In this document: positions 1-10,936 of the stretch, one piece after another
Position numbering within the stretch: position 1 is the first letter of the stretch
How the letters are laid out: each line of letters begins with the position of its first letter
IMG/VR virus record: IMGVR_UViG_2740892230_000007
Reading direction: 5' to 3' (one strand)
DNA length: 11,245 bases
DNA from: a virus
Lineage: Duplodnaviria; Heunggongvirae; Uroviricota; Caudoviricetes
Notes under the pieces: generated by a model
Told to the model about the DNA's origin: nothing
What the model saw: only the letters and a program-made list of their open reading frames with translations
Databases searched by the model: none
Program-made: the position numbers and the translations under genes

Positions 1-38
1 CGCTGAACGGGATTATTTCATCCTCAGAGAACGGTTGA
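1..38 (+). CDS. Rz1: Rz1 o-spanin, C-terminal fragment embedded in Rz in the +1 frame (copy A)
   Basis: Frame starting at position 3 gives LNGIISSSENG* (stop 36-38), matching the lambda Rz1 C-terminus (...DWQTPLNGIISPSERG). Embedded-gene arrangement is typical of Rz/Rz1. Confidence 0.75.
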   Translation, partial: LNGIISSSENG

Positions 39-127
39 TGACAATGCAGAAGCAGGTGGAAGGGGCACAGGACTATATCCGCACTCAGTGTACTAAGCAG
101 GCTTTTTATTATCCGGAGGATGTATGA
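1..127 (+). CDS. Rz: Rz i-spanin, C-terminal fragment (copy A; 5' end lies outside the window)
   Basis: Reading from position 2 gives ...AERDYFILRERLMTMQKQVEGAQDYIRTQCTKQAFYYPEDV*, matching my recollection of the lambda Rz C-terminus (...ADTAERDYFTLRERLITMQKQLEGTQKYINEQCR). Stop TGA at 125-127. Confidence 0.8.
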   Translation, partial: AERDYFILRERLMTMQKQVEGAQDYIRTQCTKQAFYYPEDV

Positions 128-348
128 AGAAATTACAGGTAACGGTAAAACCTTTTCAGGGAACAATTCCGTTCCGTGTTTTGCAACATGGCCGTGTTCT
201 GCTTGAAGAGGTGTTCAGAGGTAAATGCACTGAATGTTATTCACGAACATATGAAGTGAATGCCACGCATGAAGAATTCACCGTTGAGTGTGTGATGAAT
301 ACTGATAAATGCCGAATGGTATCCGCTGAATTACAGCCAGTGTGTTGA
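124..348 (+). CDS. Hypothetical small protein, 74 aa, five Cys (CTEC...C...C...C); cargo ORF downstream of Rz
   Basis: ORF 124..348. ATG at 124-126 overlaps the Rz stop (ATGA); GGAGG at 115-119. Lies in a ~270-bp segment absent from the paralogous copy B, where Rz is followed directly by the conserved block. No family recognised. Confidence 0.45.
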   Translation: MKKLQVTVKPFQGTIPFRVLQHGRVLLEEVFRGKCTECYSRTYEVNATHEEFTVECVMNTDKCRMVSAELQPVC

Positions 349-390
349 GCGACCTTATTATCCATGCGCGGTATTGTCGCCGTATTCCTG

Positions 391-479
391 CATTAACAGA
401 GACCGCAGCCCGACAGGGAGACTCCTCTGCGCGAGTGTGCGGGGATAATCAAAAACGATACACACCGGGGTTTACCGCG
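391..479. repeat. Conserved apparently non-coding block, copy A (89-bp core identical to 1107-1195; wider homology ~364-539)
   Basis: Letter-by-letter comparison of 391-479 with 1107-1195 shows identity; flanks are more diverged. No convincing ORF with a start codon and RBS on either strand. Confidence 0.6.
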
Positions 480-540
480 TAAACGGAGCGCGGCGTTCTC
501 CCCTCATGGTCGCCCGTCCGGTGCGATGGTGGAAGAAACT

Positions 541-716
541 GGAATCTGTTCAATAAAAAAACTGCCGTGTTGGAGTCACAGCAGTAATGTACTGATTGGG
601 TAGAAGATTATTATTGTTATGCTTTATTTTTATTCTATATGGCTGATTATTTCAATTCGGAATTAATACAGCTAATGTCTGTGATTTTTTATAAATTCAG
701 CAATATAAAGAAATAG
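541..716. other. AT-rich island (~176 bp) between the conserved block and the YlcI-like gene of copy A; absent from copy B
   Basis: Visibly AT-rich against GC-rich surroundings. In copy B the conserved block (ends ~1255) abuts the YlcI-like stop (1263) with no such insert. Confidence 0.5.
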
Positions 717-875
717 TTATATGAACAGCCATCGCAGAGCATACTGTGTATCATTCTTTTTTATAGTCAACTGACGGGCATATTTTATGTCTGCTGCCAG
801 CTCCCGGCGGCAAGATTCAATGACCCACGCAGAAAAATTTTCTGAACCTTTCTGGTCAAGAGCGATGTTAATTTG
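717..875 (-). CDS. YlcI/YnfO-like small prophage protein, C-terminal portion (copy 1; N-terminus lost in the N gap)
   Basis: Minus-strand translation after the gap: QINIALDQKGSENFSAWVIESCRRELAADIKYARQLTIKKNDTQYALRWLFI*. Paralogous to the complete 66-aa ORF at 1263-1463 (shared QINIAL..KGS.NFSAWVIE.CRR.L core) but with a different C-terminus. Confidence 0.55.
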   Translation of the reverse strand, partial: QINIALDQKGSENFSAWVIESCRRELAADIKYARQLTIKKNDTQYALRWLFI

Positions 876-885
876 NNNNNNNNNN
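876..885. other. Assembly gap (10 N), joining a YlcI-like gene to the middle of an Rz gene
   Basis: Run of N; flanks are unrelated gene fragments on opposite strands. Confidence 0.95.
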
Positions 886-1008
886 TCAACGCCACCTGCT
901 CCGGTACCGTGCGTGAAGCCACCGGCACCTCCGGCGTGGATAATGCAACCGGCCCCCGACTGGCAGACACCGCTGAACGGGATTATTTCATCCTCAGAGA
1001 ACGGTTGA
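886..1008 (+). CDS. Rz1: Rz1 o-spanin, C-terminal fragment embedded in Rz (copy B)
   Basis: +1-frame translation ...CVKPPAPPAWIMQPAPDWQTPLNGIISSSENG* matches lambda Rz1 (...CVKPPPPPAWIMQPPPDWQTPLNGIISPSERG). Confidence 0.8.
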   Translation, partial: STPPAPVPCVKPPAPPAWIMQPAPDWQTPLNGIISSSENG

Positions 1009-1070
1009 TGACAATGCAGAAGCAGCTGGAAGGGGCACAGGACTATATCCGCACTCAGTGCCTGAACTAA
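886..1070 (+). CDS. Rz: Rz i-spanin, C-terminal fragment (copy B; 5' end lost in the N gap)
   Basis: ...VREATGTSGVDNATGPRLADTAERDYFILRERLMTMQKQLEGAQDYIRTQCLN*. Positions 971-1060 match 1-90 with one mismatch; C-terminus differs from copy A. Confidence 0.8.
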
Positions 1071-1106
1071 GTTTTGCTGATGCGCCGTATCGTCGCTGTA
1101 TTCCCT

Positions 1107-1195
1107 CATTAACAGAGACCGCAGCCCGACAGGGAGACTCCTCTGCGCGAGTGTGCGGGGATAATCAAAAACGATACACACCGGGGTTTACCGCG
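1107..1195. repeat. Conserved apparently non-coding block, copy B (wider homology ~1080-1255)
   Basis: Identical to 391-479. Confidence 0.6.
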
Positions 1196-1262
1196 TTAAC
1201 GGAGCGCGGCGTTGTCCCCTCATAGTCGCCTGTCCGGTGCGATGGTGGAAGAAACCGAACGT

Positions 1263-1463
1263 TCATTTCTCGTTATTTGTCATGCTGGCCGGGCGCAGAT
1301 GCGTTGCATCTGTTGCCAGCCTTCTCCTGCAGGCTTCAATAACCCACGCTGAAAAGTTACCGGACCCTTTATGCTCAAGGGCGATGTTGATCTGTTCAAT
1401 TATGTGATTGGGGAAACGGATATTGCGGGTTGTGGTTCTGCGGGTCCGGTTTTTCGATGACAT
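1263..1463 (-). CDS. YlcI/YnfO family (DUF3950-like) small prophage protein, 66 aa
   Basis: Complete minus-strand ORF MSSKNRTRRTTTRNIRFPNHIIEQINIALEHKGSGNFSAWVIEACRRRLATDATHLRPASMTNNEK. Resembles, from memory, the small YlcI/YnfO proteins found between Rz and the terminase small subunit homolog in E. coli prophages DLP12 and Qin. Family name is recalled, not computed. Confidence 0.6.
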   Translation of the reverse strand: MSSKNRTRRTTTRNIRFPNHIIEQINIALEHKGSGNFSAWVIEACRRRLATDATHLRPASMTNNEK

Positions 1464-1491
1464 TTTCTTTCCTCTGGTGACAAGTTATATG

Positions 1492-1563
1492 ACGGGGATT
1501 TTACATGGCTGAGCTTCGTACACTCCAGAGCAGAATCAAAACTCTGAATACCCGGCGGGTGAA
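1492..1563. repeat. Left copy of a diverged direct repeat flanking the N gap (pairs with 1574-1645); holds an alternative 5' end of the HNH gene (ATG 1505, MAELRTLQSRIKTLNTRRV)
   Basis: 1492-1563 aligns to 1574-1645 at offset 82 with about 8 mismatches. Confidence 0.8.
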
Positions 1564-1573
1564 NNNNNNNNNN
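1564..1573. other. Assembly gap (10 N) between overlapping, non-identical segments
   Basis: Run of N flanked by ~72-bp near-identical direct repeats. Confidence 0.95.
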
Positions 1574-1586
1574 GCGAGGATTTTAC

Positions 1587-1818
1587 ATGGCTGTGCTTCG
1601 TACGTTACCGGGCAGAATCAAAACTCTGAATACCCGGCGGGTGAATGTCCTGAAGGGTGAACAGCGTCGGGTCAGTGGCAGTGCCCGGGTTTCCCTCAAG
1701 CGTCGTATCTGGCTGAGGGATGCCGGGCAGTGCTGTCTCTGTGGTCGTGTGGTTGACCTCTGTGACAGTGAACTCGATCACCGAATTGCACTTCAGTTCG
1801 GTGGTGGTAATGAGGAGA
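1587..1818 (+). CDS. HNH endonuclease, N-terminal ~77 codons (3' end lost in the N gap at 1819)
   Basis: MAVLRTLPGRIKTLNTRRV...CCLCGRVVDLCDSELDHRIALQFGGGNEE: a Cys pair followed by DH and GG-N, as in HNH nucleases. GAGGA at 1576-1580 before ATG 1587. Position beside cos and the terminase genes fits the known terminase-associated HNH proteins. Confidence 0.7.
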
Positions 1819-1828
1819 NNNNNNNNNN
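1819..1828. other. Assembly gap (10 N) truncating the HNH gene
   Basis: Run of N; downstream sequence is non-coding and runs into the cos region. Confidence 0.95.
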
Positions 1829-1879
1829 GACTACATTGAAAATGATAACCATTATCATTTTTGCGGGTCCTCCTGGTGG

Positions 1880-2093
1880 GGTGGGCCTGAACACGGGGCG
1901 GACGGCGCGGGAAAAGGCGCATTTTTGTGATTTTATCGTCATCATCATCATTAGCGTAACTTGTTGTTTTTAATGTGTTTAGCATTAAAAAGATGATGAT
2001 TGTGGTTGATTTTTGTTCGACATCTTTATATGGCGGCATTTCTTTACAAAAAAAGAGCCACTTTTGTTCAGCGGTTTATGTGGAGGGATGTGA
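1880..2093. other. Candidate cos region (cosN-like core ~1893-1911, then repeat-rich cosB-like region)
   Basis: acggggcggacggcgcggg at 1893-1911 resembles lambda cosN as I recall it (ACGGGGCGGCGACCTCGCGGG). Downstream cgtcat...aactt...tgttttta also recalls the lambda cosB side. CAT/ATG triplet repeats at 1935-1947 (atcatcatcatca) and 1992-2000 (gatgatgat, inverted); A-tract at 2049-2055. Sits directly upstream of the terminase small subunit. Confidence 0.5.
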
Positions 2094-2570
2094 ATGGACG
2101 GCGAGCTGAAAAATATGAAGTTAAATATTAATCAACTGGCAGCCATTTCAGGTCTGCACCGGCAGACTGTTGCCGCCAGAATGGCGGATGTTCCTCTTGC
2201 ACCAGGTAGTAATGAAAAGAAAAAAATGTATCTCCTGACGGATTTGATTATTTCGTTGCTGGAAAAACCACCGGCTTCCGAAGATGAAGAGATGAACCCA
2301 CATGATCGGAAGGCATGGTATCAGTCCGAGCGCGAGCGTCTTAAATTTCAGCATGAAACTGTTCAGCTTGTGCCAGTCAGTGATGTCAGGCGGTCCTTTT
2401 CTGTCGTGGTGAAAGCGATAGTTCAGGTACTGGAAACCTGGCCTGACCGGCTGGAGAGGGACAGGGGGTGGACCGCATCACAACTGAATGAAGTACAGAT
2501 TGTGGTTGATGAGATCCGCGATACACTGGAAAAGGCAGTCATTGACTGTTGTGATGAGGCCGATATGTGA
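2094..2570 (+). CDS. Terminase small subunit (helix-turn-helix DNA-binding N-terminus)
   Basis: ORF 2094..2570, 158 aa. N-terminal LNINQLAAISGLHRQTVAARM looks like an HTH. GGAGGG at 2080-2085. Stop overlaps the GTG start of the large subunit (ATGTGA). Alternative start ATG 2115. Confidence 0.7.
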   Translation: MDGELKNMKLNINQLAAISGLHRQTVAARMADVPLAPGSNEKKKMYLLTDLIISLLEKPPASEDEEMNPHDRKAWYQSERERLKFQHETVQLVPVSDVRRSFSVVVKAIVQVLETWPDRLERDRGWTASQLNEVQIVVDEIRDTLEKAVIDCCDEADM

Positions 2571-4899: not shown

Positions 4900-6401
4900 T
4901 GGCAATTATTGATGATGTGATAGGCGTGTTTTCCCCCGGCTGGAAAGCAGCCAGACTGCGTTCAAGGGCGTTAATCATGGCCTATGAGGCGGTGAAACCG
5001 ACCCGGACACATAAAGCCCGGCGGGAAAATCGCTCTGCTGATCAGCTCAGTAAATACGGTGCGGTTTCCCTGCGGGAGCAGGCCCGTTTTCTGGATATCA
5101 ATCATGACCTGGTGATTGGTGTGTTTGACAAGCTGGAAGAGCGGGTGATTGGTGCCAGGGGAATTATTGTGGAGCCTCAGCCATTACGAAAAAACGGGGA
5201 AATGGCGGCAGAGCTGGCTGCGGATATCCGCCGGTTGTGGGCTGAGTGGTCCGTGAGTCCGGATGTGACAGGGCAGTATACCCGTCCCGTGCTTGAACGT
5301 TTACTGCTGCGGACCTGGCTGCGGGATGGTGAAGTGTTTGCGCAGATGGTCAGTGGTGCGGGAAACGGTCTGGAACGGACGGCGGGAGTGCCATTCTGGC
5401 TTGAGGCGATGGAGCCGGATTTTGTTCCCATGCGCACTGATGAATCCGCCGGACTGAATCAGGGGGTTTTTCTTGATGAGTGGGGAAGACCGAAAAAATA
5501 TCTGGTTTATAAAAATTATCCGGTCAGCGGCCGGCAGAGTGATACGAAAGAAATCGCTGCCGGAAAAATGATCCACCTGAAGTTCACTCGTCGTCTGCAT
5601 CAGACGCGAGGCTCATCCATGTTATCGGGGGTGCTGATACGGATCAGTGCCCTTAAGGAGTATGAGGATGCGGAACTCACTGCGGCGCGTATTGCCGCGG
5701 CGCTGGGACTGTATATCCGTAAAGGTGACGGGCAGGACTATGAAGAGCCGGGGATCAAAGAAACCGACCGGGAAGTCCATATCACCCCGGGTATTATTTA
5801 TGACGATTTGCGCAAGGGCGAGGATATCGGCATGGTCAAATCAGACCGTCCCAATCCCAACCTTGAAACTTTCCGCAACGGCCAGTTGCGTGCAGTGGCA
5901 GCGGGCAGTCGTCTGAGTTTTTCCAGTGCGGCGCGTAACTATAACGGCACCTACAGTGCCCAGCGGCAGGAGCTGGTCGAGTCCACGGATGGTTACCTGA
6001 TCCTGCAGGACTGTTTTATTGGCGCGGTAACCCGTCCGGTGTACCGGACATGGCTGAATATGGTGGTTGCGGCAGGTCTGCTGAAAATTCCGGCGGATGT
6101 GGAGATGAAAACGCTATATAACGCGACGTATTCCGGTCCGGTGATGCCGTGGATCGACCCGGTTAAGGAAGCTGAAGCCTGGAGAATTCAGATCCGGGGT
6201 GGTGCAGCGACAGAATCTGACTGGGTGCGTGCCGGCGGGCGCAATCCGGATGAGGTCAAACGTCGCCGCAAGGCTGAAATTGATGAAAACAGCAGACTGG
6301 GGCTGGTCTTTGATACTGACCCCGTCAACGACAAAGGAGGCAACAGTGCCGGAACTGAACAACAGCGTCAGCAGGCCACCGACAGCCAGCATGAAGAATA
6401 A
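4899..6401 (+). CDS. Portal protein, lambda gpB family
   Basis: 500-aa ORF directly after W (TAATG overlap), in the position and of the size expected for a lambda-type portal, between W and the prohead protease. Confidence 0.85.
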   Translation: MAIIDDVIGVFSPGWKAARLRSRALIMAYEAVKPTRTHKARRENRSADQLSKYGAVSLREQARFLDINHDLVIGVFDKLEERVIGARGIIVEPQPLRKNGEMAAELAADIRRLWAEWSVSPDVTGQYTRPVLERLLLRTWLRDGEVFAQMVSGAGNGLERTAGVPFWLEAMEPDFVPMRTDESAGLNQGVFLDEWGRPKKYLVYKNYPVSGRQSDTKEIAAGKMIHLKFTRRLHQTRGSSMLSGVLIRISALKEYEDAELTAARIAAALGLYIRKGDGQDYEEPGIKETDREVHITPGIIYDDLRKGEDIGMVKSDRPNPNLETFRNGQLRAVAAGSRLSFSSAARNYNGTYSAQRQELVESTDGYLILQDCFIGAVTRPVYRTWLNMVVAAGLLKIPADVEMKTLYNATYSGPVMPWIDPVKEAEAWRIQIRGGAATESDWVRAGGRNPDEVKRRRKAEIDENSRLGLVFDTDPVNDKGGNSAGTEQQRQQATDSQHEE

Positions 6402-8334
6402 ATCCTGGTTCAGGATGCAGGCGGGTGGTCAGGGTGAGGCGGATATTTATATTTATGACGAGATTGGTTTCTGGGGAGTTACCGCGAAGCAGTTTGTCAG
6501 CGATATGAATGCCCTGGGTGATATCACCCACATTAATCTCCACATCAACTCACCGGGTGGCGATGTCTTTGAAGGCATCGCCATTTTTAATGCCCTGAAA
6601 AATCACGGTGCGGCCATTACCGTGTATGTGGATGGCGTTGCCGCCTCGATGGCATCCCTGATTGCGATGGCCGGTGACACGGTCATTATGCCGGAAAATG
6701 CCTTCATGATGATCCATAAACCCTGGGGGATCAGCGGTGGTGATGCGGAGAAAATGCGCACTTATGCCGAACGTCTGGACAAACTTGAGTCGGTTATGGT
6801 GCCGGTATATGCGCAGAAAACCGGAAAAACTACCGATGAAATTGCCGCCATGCTGGCGGATGAGACCTGGATGTCCGGTGCCGAGTGTCTGGCACACGGA
6901 TTTGCAGACCAGGTGACGCCAGCCGTTAAGGCAATGGCATGTANNNNNNNNNNCCGAAATATGATCACGCAGCCATACAACAGTGCCCCGCGTGATACCA
7001 CAGTGACAATCCCTGCACCGGCGGTAACAGAACCATCACCGGTACCGGCAGTGTCTGATGAGGCGACCATTCGCGCCCGCGTTATGGCAGAACAGAAAGC
7101 CCGCATGTCAGGCATTAACGATCTGTTTGCCATGTTCGGCGGTCGCTATCAGACGCTTCAGGCACAGTGCGTGGCTGATCCTGACTGTTCGCTGGAAATG
7201 GCCCGTGAACGTCTGCTGAATGAAATGGGCAAGGAGTCCTCGCCGACCAACAAAAATACACCGGCTCATATTTATGCCGGAAACGGCAATTTTGTGGGGG
7301 ACGGGATCCGCCAGGCGATGCTGGCCCGTGCCGGATTTGAAAATGTCGAGAAGGATAACGCCTATAACGGGATGACCCTGCGTGAATGGGCTCGCATGTC
7401 ACTGACGGAGCGCGGTATTGGGGTGGCCAGTTATAACCCCATGCAGATGGTCGGGCTGGCGCTGACGCACAGCACCTCTGATTTTGGCAATATTCTGCTG
7501 GATGTGTCGAACAAGGGGCTGATCCAGGGCTGGGAGGAATCAGAAGAAACCTTCCAGAAGTGGACCCGTAAGGGACGCCTGTCAGACTTCAAAACAGCGT
7601 ATCGCGTGGGGATGGGCGGTTTTGGTTCTCTGCGCCAGGTTCGTGAGGGGGCGGAGTATAAATACATCACCACCTCAGATCGCAAGGAGACCATTGCACT
7701 GGCCACTTACGGGGAGATTTTCTCCATCACCCGCCAGGCCATTATCAATGATGATCTGAATATGCTGGTGGACGTGCCGATGAAGATGGGGCGTGCGGCG
7801 AAGGCAACGATTGGTGACCTGGTTTACAAGGTGCTGACGGATAACCCGAAACTGTCAGACGGTAAGGCGCTGTTCCATGCCGATCACAAAAATATTGCCA
7901 CCGGTGGGATTTCCGTTTCCGGACTGGATGCGGCCCGTCAGATGATGCGCCTGCAGAAAGAAGGCGATCGCGCCCTGAATATCCGTCCGGCCTTTATGCT
8001 GGTACCGGTGGCACTGGAGACGGTGGCGAACCAGACCATCAAATCGGCCAGTGTGAAAGGGGCGGATGCAAACGCCGGTGTCATTAACCCCATCCAGAAC
8101 TTTGCTGAGGTGATTGCAGAAGCGCGTCTTGATGCGGCAGATCCGAAAACCTGGTATCTGGCGGCGGCACAGGGCACTGACACCATTGAAGTGGCCTGGC
8201 TGGATGGTGTGGACACGCCATACATTGATCAGCAGGAAGGTTTCACCACTGACGGCATTGCCACAAAAATCCGTATTGATGCCGGAGTGGCACCACTTGA
8301 CTGGCGCGGGCTGGTGCGTTCGTCGGTGGCCTGA
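6346..8334 (+). CDS. Prohead protease (ClpP/S14-like) fused to scaffold-like linker and HK97-fold major capsid protein; interrupted by an N gap
   Basis: N-terminal part (ADIYIYDEIG...INSPGGDVFEGIAIFNALKNHGAAITVYVDGVAASMASLIAMAGD...MIHKPWG) is ClpP-like. The C-terminal ~400 aa is capsid-like by position and size. Preferred start GTG 6346 (AAGGAGG at 6334-6340); ATG 6391 and ATG 6415 are alternatives. The ORF track's 6199 start overlaps the portal by 200 nt and is rejected. Frame continuity across the gap is not evidence of a real fusion. Confidence 0.75.
   Translation: MPELNNSVSRPPTASMKNKSWFRMQAGGQGEADIYIYDEIGFWGVTAKQFVSDMNALGDITHINLHINSPGGDVFEGIAIFNALKNHGAAITVYVDGVAASMASLIAMAGDTVIMPENAFMMIHKPWGISGGDAEKMRTYAERLDKLESVMVPVYAQKTGKTTDEIAAMLADETWMSGAECLAHGFADQVTPAVKAMACXXXXRNMITQPYNSAPRDTTVTIPAPAVTEPSPVPAVSDEATIRARVMAEQKARMSGINDLFAMFGGRYQTLQAQCVADPDCSLEMARERLLNEMGKESSPTNKNTPAHIYAGNGNFVGDGIRQAMLARAGFENVEKDNAYNGMTLREWARMSLTERGIGVASYNPMQMVGLALTHSTSDFGNILLDVSNKGLIQGWEESEETFQKWTRKGRLSDFKTAYRVGMGGFGSLRQVREGAEYKYITTSDRKETIALATYGEIFSITRQAIINDDLNMLVDVPMKMGRAAKATIGDLVYKVLTDNPKLSDGKALFHADHKNIATGGISVSGLDAARQMMRLQKEGDRALNIRPAFMLVPVALETVANQTIKSASVKGADANAGVINPIQNFAEVIAEARLDAADPKTWYLAAAQGTDTIEVAWLDGVDTPYIDQQEGFTTDGIATKIRIDAGVAPLDWRGLVRSSVA
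6944..6953. other. Assembly gap (10 N) inside the protease/capsid ORF
   Basis: Run of N between the protease domain and the linker region. Confidence 0.95.
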
Positions 8335-10066: not shown

Positions 10067-10936
10067 ATGGCAATACCAAATCCTCTTGAGCCGGTGAAAG
10101 GTTCCGGCACCACACTATGGGTGTACACCGGCAAGGATGATGCTTATGCCAACCCGTTGTCAGATGATGGCTGGCAGCGACTGGCTAAGGTGAAGGATCT
10201 GACGCCGGGCGAGATGACGGCAGAACCCTACGATGATAACTACCTGGATGATGAAGACGCGGACTGGACCGCGACCGGGCAGGGGCAGAAGTCTGCAGGA
10301 GATACCAGTTTTACGCTGGCCTGGAAACCGGGAGAAGAAGGTCAGAAAGGGCTTATAGGCTGGTTTGAAAGCGGGGATGTGCGGGCCTATAAAATCCGTT
10401 TTCCGAACGGCACGGTGGATGTGTTTCGTGGCTGGGTCAGCANNNNNNNNNNGGAAGGCCAGAAAGGGCTTATAGGCTGGTTTGAAAGCGGCGATGTCCG
10501 GGCCTATAAAATCCGTTTTCCGAATGGCATGGTGGATGTGTTTCGTGGCTGGGTCAGCAGTATCGGTAAGGCCGTGACGGCGAAAGAAGTGATCACCCGC
10601 ACGGTGAAAGTGACCAACGTGGGCAAACCTTCTGTAGCGGAAGAACGCAGCAAAATTACGCCGGTCACTGCGATTAAGGTGACGCCGACATCCGGTACGG
10701 TGGCAAAAGGGAAAACAACCACCCTGACGGTTTCTTTTGAGCCGGAAAGTGCAACAGACAAGACGTTCAGAGCGGTTTCCGCCGATCCGTCGAAAGCCAC
10801 CATTAGTGTGAAAGATATGACAATTACGGTAAACGGCGTGGCGACAGGTAAGGTGCAGATCCCTGTGGTGAGCGGAAATGGTCAGTTCGCCGCAGTGGCT
10901 GAAGTCACCGTTACTGAAGCGGGCGCTGCAGGGTAA
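10067..10936 (+). CDS. V: Major tail protein V (with C-terminal Ig-like domain); contains an artefactual 39-codon duplication across an N gap
   Basis: Near-identical to lambda gpV as recalled ([10 protein letters not shown]...[19 protein letters not shown]...[26 protein letters not shown]...[42 protein letters not shown]...). ORF is 289 aa against 246 for lambda V; the excess equals the duplicated segment plus the gap. Confidence 0.95.
10337..10442. repeat. Left copy of a diverged direct repeat inside V (pairs with 10454-10559)
   Basis: Aligns to 10454-10559 at offset 117 with 5 mismatches. Encodes [35 protein letters not shown]; the right copy has M for T at one position. Confidence 0.85.
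10443..10452. other. Assembly gap (10 N) between overlapping, non-identical segments inside V
   Basis: Run of N flanked by ~106-bp near-identical direct repeats. Confidence 0.95.
10454..10559. repeat. Right copy of the diverged direct repeat inside V
   Basis: See 10337-10442. Confidence 0.85.

Follow-up and report, generated by a model that had tools for sequence, protein, structure and literature searches.

A mobile PHROG 2571 gene behind the Rz lysis gene of Stx-phage-type prophages encodes a predicted beta-sandwich protein

Phages of the lambda type carry, after Rz/Rz1 and between the lysis genes and cos, accessory genes called morons (bor is one), which are dispensable, present in one phage and missing from a near-identical other, and unlike their flanks in base composition. 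The bor gene of lambda has expression signals of its own and encodes a lipoprotein. The same position, dispensability, patchy presence and distinct composition recur in the gene described here, a 74-amino-acid (aa) open reading frame (ORF) that starts on the stop codon of Rz in the IMG/VR virus record IMGVR_UViG_2740892230_000007 (Caudoviricetes), an 11,245-nucleotide stretch of DNA called the window below. The likeness to bor has limits: bor lies on the opposite strand, whereas the window gene lies on the late strand and overlaps the Rz stop, is without a detected promoter or terminator, and specifies a product predicted to be cytoplasmic. A sequence-only reading of the window had called the gene moron-type; the accessory-slot part of that label stands, with presence/absence and distinct composition both found, and the strict sense falls, since a consensus-only scan detected no promoter or terminator belonging to the gene and the Rz stop is overlapped. 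The gene is a member of PHROG 2571, a family of unknown function, and we tentatively read it, at somewhat under an even chance for the combination as a whole, as a real, dispensable prophage gene that would be made late with Rz and whose cytoplasmic product would be a binding protein of the conflict type.

The window holds two Rz 3' ends, copies A and B, and the features on which their comparison turns are the following.

2-127, plus strand: 3' end of Rz (i-spanin), copy A, in frame from nucleotide 2, with stop codon TGA at 125-127.
91-363, no strand: accessory cassette of 273 bp, 41.8% GC, missing from copy B and from phage BP-4795.
115-120, plus strand: ribosome-binding site GGAGGA, 3 nucleotides before the ATG and inside the Rz read-through, kept in diverged alleles.
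124-348, plus strand: 74-aa ORF, identical to RefSeq WP_000736096.1 ("hypothetical protein"), PHROG 2571, predicted soluble 8.6-kDa beta-sandwich.
886-1070, plus strand: 3' end of Rz, copy B, the empty-slot allele, with TAA at 1068-1070 and the Rz1 end at 1008.
1061-1079, no strand: 19-bp slot content of copy B, comprising the final codons and stop of Rz plus 9 nucleotides.

Nucleotides 1-90 recur at 971-1060 with a single mismatch, and 364-539 match 1080-1255 at 94.9% identity; between these flanks lie 273 bp in copy A (91-363) and 19 bp in copy B (1061-1079), so that the geometry first described, a match up to position 90 followed by divergence and an insert in copy A only, is confirmed. Phages BP-4795, YYZ-2008 and Stx2a_WGPS2 have the flanks of copy A at 99.2% identity and are without the 273 bp. 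In alignment, the BP-4795 junction is exactly that of copy B and the EDL933 junction is the filled one, whence the indel is natural and not due to chance, and the difference between copies A and B is a natural cassette polymorphism. The insert meets its left flank at base three of the conserved Cys codon at the C-terminus of Rz (lambda ...NEQCR before the stop; codon 89-91 in the translation of copy A) and its right flank immediately 5' of ATGCGCGGTAT; the cassette has recombined in just after that Cys codon. Its GC content of 41.8% compares with 53.3% in Rz, 59.1% in the downstream block and 54-58% in the packaging genes. The proposal that an accessory gene occupies a variable slot behind the lysis cassette is thus borne out by near-identical flanks that are filled or empty around an insert of 41.8% GC in surroundings of 53-59%, and that the gene is dispensable, foreign in composition and horizontally mobile is well supported.

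What the two copies do not represent is a duplication. Five 10-N gaps (876-885, 1564-1573, 1819-1828, 6944-6953 and 10443-10452) mark the window as a scaffold of contigs, and copies A and B sit on different ones; from this it follows that they are alternative Rz-to-YlcI/YnfO paths of two prophages in one genome, juxtaposed by the assembler, and no tandem repeat. The statement that the gene occurs in one copy only therefore holds for the insert difference and fails in its sense of a duplicated region. The appearance of two copies arises from draft scaffolding of repeated prophage DNA, and similar findings of duplication with insertion in gapped windows need the same caution. A gapped scaffold with overlapping contig ends might also have suggested that the ORF is spurious or an artefact of assembly, an explanation that we consider refuted: 147 of 5426 complete Escherichia coli genomes, and complete Stx phage genomes too, carry the 875 bp of copy A without interruption at 99.9% identity, the ORF is under purifying selection, and its structure prediction is confident. 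Downstream of copy A, the complete genomes carry a terminase/capsid module different from that of the window, which appears to mix contigs of more than one prophage.

As a gene, the ORF has the signals and the substitution pattern to be expected. Start codon ATG (124-126) and Rz stop codon TGA (125-127) overlap as ATGA, a junction confirmed by translation as it had been proposed. Against three diverged alleles, dN/dS (the ratio of nonsynonymous to synonymous substitution rates) is 0.21-0.37 at a dS of 0.43-1.10, with third-position changes dominant; the lack of coding conservation that would have undone the original proposal is not what is seen, and, judged by these substitutions, the ORF is a genuine gene under purifying selection. 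A survey of the Rz-proximal slot found homologs of the insert in 1245 of the 5426 complete E. coli genomes, where "hypothetical protein" adjoining an Rz "lysis protein" is almost always the annotation, and the slot of BP-4795 empty. The gene is thus present in roughly one in four complete E. coli genomes, Stx1-, Stx2a- and Stx2c-converting phages included, and among the carriers are EDL933, E2348/69 and the partial H-19B record; the phages of records LC727877 and LC567840 are examples of Stx2c or Stx2a phages with the allele. The exact protein occurs on roughly 1000 or more public contigs, all sources describing it as hypothetical or uncharacterised, and literature searches by RefSeq accession, PHROG identifier and slot description found nothing relevant. 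The gene stands 3' of Rz with two types of lysis cassette, and before packaging modules of either the HNH plus TerS or the lambda-like Nu1 plus A kind. Since it is already catalogued, though uncharacterised, its novelty is modest.

The altered Rz C-terminus noticed in copy A is indeed present, and it can now be explained. In the EDL933, E400634 and Salmonella alleles, Rz stops (TAA or TAG) about 20 nucleotides before the ORF and is followed by a conserved spacer that carries a GGAG(G/A)A ribosome-binding site. The window allele and that of E2348/69 have lost this early stop, and consequently Rz is translated through the spacer and ribosome-binding site of the cassette, which adds to copy A the 11-codon read-through extension TKQAFYYPEDV (92-124). 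Copy A Rz accordingly ends in ...RTQCTKQAFYYPEDV and copy B in ...RTQCLN; RefSeq "lysis protein" WP_044683506.1 shares the Rz stop of copy A.

Signals for separate expression were looked for by scanning. A consensus-only scan of window 1-875 and of the complete Rz gene of locus L001 gave no sigma-70-like promoter on the plus strand, nor was any plus-strand terminator found after the ORF; a single good terminator was detected, that of the convergent YlcI/YnfO gene (minus strand, 585-561). The lack of a detected promoter and the ATGA overlap with Rz point to late-operon transcription and translational coupling to Rz: from its anatomy, the gene reads as part of the late lysis operon, and the 74-aa protein would be made late, from the lysis/late transcript, and coupled in translation to Rz.

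Profile and structure-prediction searches returned a PHROG 2571 match and a confident beta-sandwich, with no relative of known function, in keeping with the earlier remark that no family was recognisable. The PHROG 2571 profile matches residues 1-73 of the window protein (E = 1.2e-28, 101 bits), and also matches the distant members P0049, P0038 and the 280-aa P0046. Its 291 positions are modelled on a long form (P0046; PhiR46_1, 286 aa), and the window protein corresponds to no more than the beta-sandwich domain at its centre (profile positions 100-172). Relatives are few: an exhaustive profile search of 1.84 billion representatives gave only 42, from Enterobacterales, including Salmonella, Klebsiella, Yersinia and Xenorhabdus, while a profile search of genome contigs with the divergent-clade alignment gave a single locus. 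In Pfam, NCBIfam and PADLOC the window protein has no match and the 18 family members nothing above threshold, and a search of PDB sequences by profile produced matches at chance level only. The AlphaFold2 model is all-beta, with a mean pLDDT (predicted local distance difference test) of 87.8, and Foldseek against PDB and BFVD found no close structural relative (best E about 0.07). Hydropathy on the Kyte-Doolittle scale peaks at 0.64 over 15 residues, and there is no hydrophobic segment, signal peptide or membrane segment, by reason of which the protein should stay in the cytoplasm; it is predicted to be a soluble, cytoplasmic, small beta-sandwich of 8.6 kDa.

The family also varies in length. 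The long form (280-286 aa; P0046 and phage PhiR46_1, locus L017, 3201-4061) likewise occupies a post-Rz slot and has the beta-sandwich in its middle, its N- and C-terminal regions being without Pfam or NCBIfam match. A divergent member of 146 aa with a C-terminal extension (locus L061, 4986-5426) is directly followed by a 322-aa minus-strand ORF (5452-6420) that, by inspection only, is IS5-type transposase-like.

The resemblance of such a fold to known modules is generic. The CBM6/35/36 modules, PA-IIL-type lectins, the hemocyanin C-terminal domain and the FN3-like part of J proteins are beta-sandwiches too, but they share 7-15% identity with the window protein at Foldseek E values of 0.07 or more and show no profile similarity to it, and no conserved ligand-binding residues are identifiable in it. 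A more specific kinship would make the protein a virion or assembly accessory, a small Ig/FN3-like beta-sandwich possibly related to a domain of the tail-tip protein J. Weak Pfam matches are the source of this idea (FNIII-A_GpJ in three of 18 members, E about 0.02, and Phage_Tail_Tip in P0043, E = 0.0017), every one of them under its curated cut-off; hhalign against lambda J gives a probability of 0.2%, Foldseek in PDB/BFVD reaches no better than E of about 0.07, and the gene keeps company with varied head and tail modules and is missing from near-identical phages, all of which makes a virion role very improbable. Kinship with the tail-tip J FNIII-A domain (PF24801) itself was rejected, the window protein having no Pfam match and the best member, at E = 0.02, falling far under the 27-bit cut-off.

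The sequence-only reading had also taken five Cys residues to imply metal binding or disulfides, and this part does not survive comparison. The window allele does have five Cys, with a C35-x-x-C38 pair, and among close alleles C35 is invariant, C56 nearly so and C38 mostly kept. Yet C38 is gone from the EDL933 and E2348/69 alleles, C63 and C74 vary, and in the wider family G33 is the sole invariant residue: no Cys column is conserved and 19 of the 49 unique relatives contain no Cys at all. The four conserved Cys/His ligands expected of a zinc-ribbon or CxxC protein are not present, and a cytoplasmic location speaks against structural disulfides. A Cys-dependent metal-binding or disulfide protein is accordingly a highly improbable description, and as a family property it is largely refuted.

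Outside the window, the PHROG 2571 member is shown to be usually the fast-evolving first gene of a mobile cassette whose second gene encodes a better-conserved 71-aa partner of phrog_4280, itself a family of unknown function. The partner (68-73 aa) follows the PHROG 2571 member by 40-75 nucleotides, and the pair was seen in E. coli E400634, Salmonella, phage mEp237 (where the family member is gp60, hhalign probability 99.5%, and the partner gp61), two Xenorhabdus species, a Yersinia-type prophage and four metagenomic contigs. Among partner loci in IMG/VR viral contigs, 76 of 79 have a family member directly upstream; at two loci an o-spanin gene directly precedes the partner with no family member upstream. 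Over 49 unique pairs, median identity is 39% for the family member (minimum 21%) and 63% for the partner (minimum 52%), the partner coming out as the better conserved gene in 97% of 1176 comparisons. E. coli has the partner much more rarely (139 genomes) than the PHROG 2571 family (1245). The window-type allele is solo: none of 14 IMG/VR loci at 99-100% identity has the partner and tblastn of the window found no trace of it, whereas alleles at 66-71% identity are paired in 15 of 19 loci. These counts show the window allele, typical of Stx-phage-type prophages, to be a solo derivative that lost its partner. The two-gene cassette with phrog_4280 is new here and is the most useful lead of this work.

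The cassette moves between contexts. Upstream of it stand spanins, endolysins, Q-type regulators, a DNA methylase, the small terminase subunit gene (terS) or DUF6246, with lysis genes the commonest, and it is found also next to tail genes and in the early-left region. In Yersinia it lies in that early-left region, between a kinase and ParDE, ERF and Int, and in Xenorhabdus it precedes the holin, with PixA and a Tad2-like gene as neighbours. The partner found in Pseudomonas phages is preceded by two unrelated small ORFs, which are not PHROG 2571 members.

In the spacer before the partner, TCTCCGGGTACCCAA, with the palindrome GGGTACCC, is kept without change in E. coli, Salmonella and Xenorhabdus (loci L006 2746-2785, L014 5226-5264 and L010 1661-1735), even though from genus to genus the gene before it shares only about 31-35% identity; the Pseudomonas homologs are without it. 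It may be a regulatory site.

This architecture invites comparison with anti-CRISPR/Aca operons, and the analogy is architectural only. As in those operons, a fast-evolving small first gene precedes a conserved small second one, and in Pseudomonas the conserved partner follows unrelated small ORFs. It differs in that the partner has no helix-turn-helix or match to an Aca family, no upstream promoter with operators is present, no anti-defence activity is known here, and the window allele has no partner at all. Two small genes, a variable one and then a conserved one, are equally the layout of the remnant of a toxin-antitoxin-like or addiction pair, in which the variable first protein would neutralise the conserved partner and the window allele would be an orphan neutraliser; the unrelated small ORFs before the Pseudomonas partner and the ParDE next to the Yersinia pair fit this as well. 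It is nevertheless quite unlikely: models of toxins, antitoxins and defence proteins match neither of the two, a DNA-binding fold is lacking in the first, the two genes are separated by a 40-75-nucleotide spacer instead of overlapping, no promoter belonging to the window gene was found, and at the two o-spanin loci the partner exists with no family member.

Position beside Rz raises another explanation, that by acting on the co-translated spanin, endolysin or holin the protein tunes when, or how efficiently, the cell lyses. The gene lies directly 3' of Rz, by ATGA overlap or a 23-nucleotide spacer, in E. coli and Salmonella and with both types of lysis cassette, and no other kind of gene precedes the cassette as often as lysis genes do. 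The protein, however, lacks a signal peptide and any membrane segment, whereas Rz/Rz1 have their functional parts in the periplasm, and none of the hallmarks searched for in the window protein (membrane anchor, lipobox, signal sequence, Pfam Phage_lysis or holin) was found. The cassette is located also far from lysis genes, near-identical phages do without the gene, and it travels with different packaging and lysis modules in the fashion of a mosaic unit. On balance, a lysis modulator is unlikely.

Faster divergence than the partner, slot hopping, dispensability and occasional anti-defence-like neighbours fit a conflict binding protein better than a lysis component, and it is on these that the reading of the gene as a late-made conflict protein is built. 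In its mechanism the beta-sandwich would bind, and so titrate or block, some variable component of the host or of a competitor phage, and the outcome might be counter-defence, exclusion or host takeover and not a part in the lysis machinery, two steps that we put forward with low confidence. The case for a conflict role is weak, and several points weigh against it. Annotated homologs and the literature and database sources searched yield no function; the evidence for conflict is confined to slot behaviour, divergence and adjacency, and the adjacency to Tad2-like and weakly Acb2/Tad1-like genes is limited to two related Xenorhabdus loci. Counter-defence proteins mostly act early, and late expression would be atypical of them. 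Weak or non-sigma-70 promoters could escape a consensus-only scan, which leaves room for expression in the prophage state. Finally, the E. coli and Salmonella gene is almost always beside Rz, which a lysis-linked role would explain equally. No anti-defence or defence family (Tad2-like, Acb2/Tad1, PADLOC) matched the window protein or the 18 members in searches extending to Pfam E values of 1.

A wider formulation would have PHROG 2571 and phrog_4280 together form an unrecognised mobile cassette for counter-defence or inter-phage competition in temperate Enterobacterales phages, with the beta-sandwich as effector, the partner as cofactor or regulator, and the Stx-type solo allele as a streamlined late effector; we rate this as rather unlikely. 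Purifying selection, a confident fold and an ancestral conserved partner make the gene a tractable candidate for screens of phage-host conflict. At the same time it is a further uncharacterised accessory gene at a site where such genes were known before, and views of lysis and of prophages are unchanged by it.

Two Xenorhabdus loci deserve separate mention. In X. budapestensis the post-Rz slot is filled by an 80-aa ORF with a weak Acb2/Tad1-hairpin Pfam match (locus L010, 3699-3941), and the family member of X. bovienii is immediately preceded by a Tad2-like/DUF7823 gene (locus L011, 1153-1935), which suggests that Xenorhabdus slots collect counter-defence genes.

The remaining features of the region lie on either side of the gene.

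3-38, plus strand: 3' end of Rz1 (o-spanin), embedded in Rz in the +1 frame and ending ...LNGIISSSENG before its stop (lambda Rz1, for comparison, ends ...LNGIISPSERG).
364-539, no strand: noncoding block forming the right flank of the slot, 59% GC, matching copy B 1080-1255.
561-585, minus strand: intrinsic-terminator-like hairpin with T-run, 3' of the minus-strand YlcI/YnfO gene.
717-875, minus strand: 3' part of a YlcI/YnfO (DUF3950) family gene, truncated by gap 876-885.

The 176-nucleotide block (364-539 and 1080-1255; 59.1% GC) is shared with EDL933 and BP-4795 and contains no consistent ORF, one stop codon differing between copies A and B; no folding signal was found on either strand of 364-545 (z about 0), and an Rfam scan of window 1-2100 gave no match. 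Beyond it, an AT-rich segment (540-716, 28.8% GC) is present in copy A and absent from copy B, a second difference between the prophage alleles; on the minus strand it holds the terminator (585-561) as well as a promoter-like site (655-626). In E. coli EcPF7 (locus L081, 1724-2050) other cargo, a 108-aa "TonB family protein", stands between the conserved block and YlcI/YnfO, so that the Rz-to-YlcI interval has at least two cargo positions, and in EDL933 (locus L003, 3103-3243) an annotated, strongly hydrophobic 46-aa ORF lies between the block flanking the family gene and YlcI/YnfO. Elsewhere in the window, sequence flanking several gaps recurs with small differences, as at the start of the HNH gene (1505-1563 and 1587-1645) and in the (T/M)VDVFRGWVS found on either side of gap 10443-10452, within a 289-aa ORF (10067-10936).
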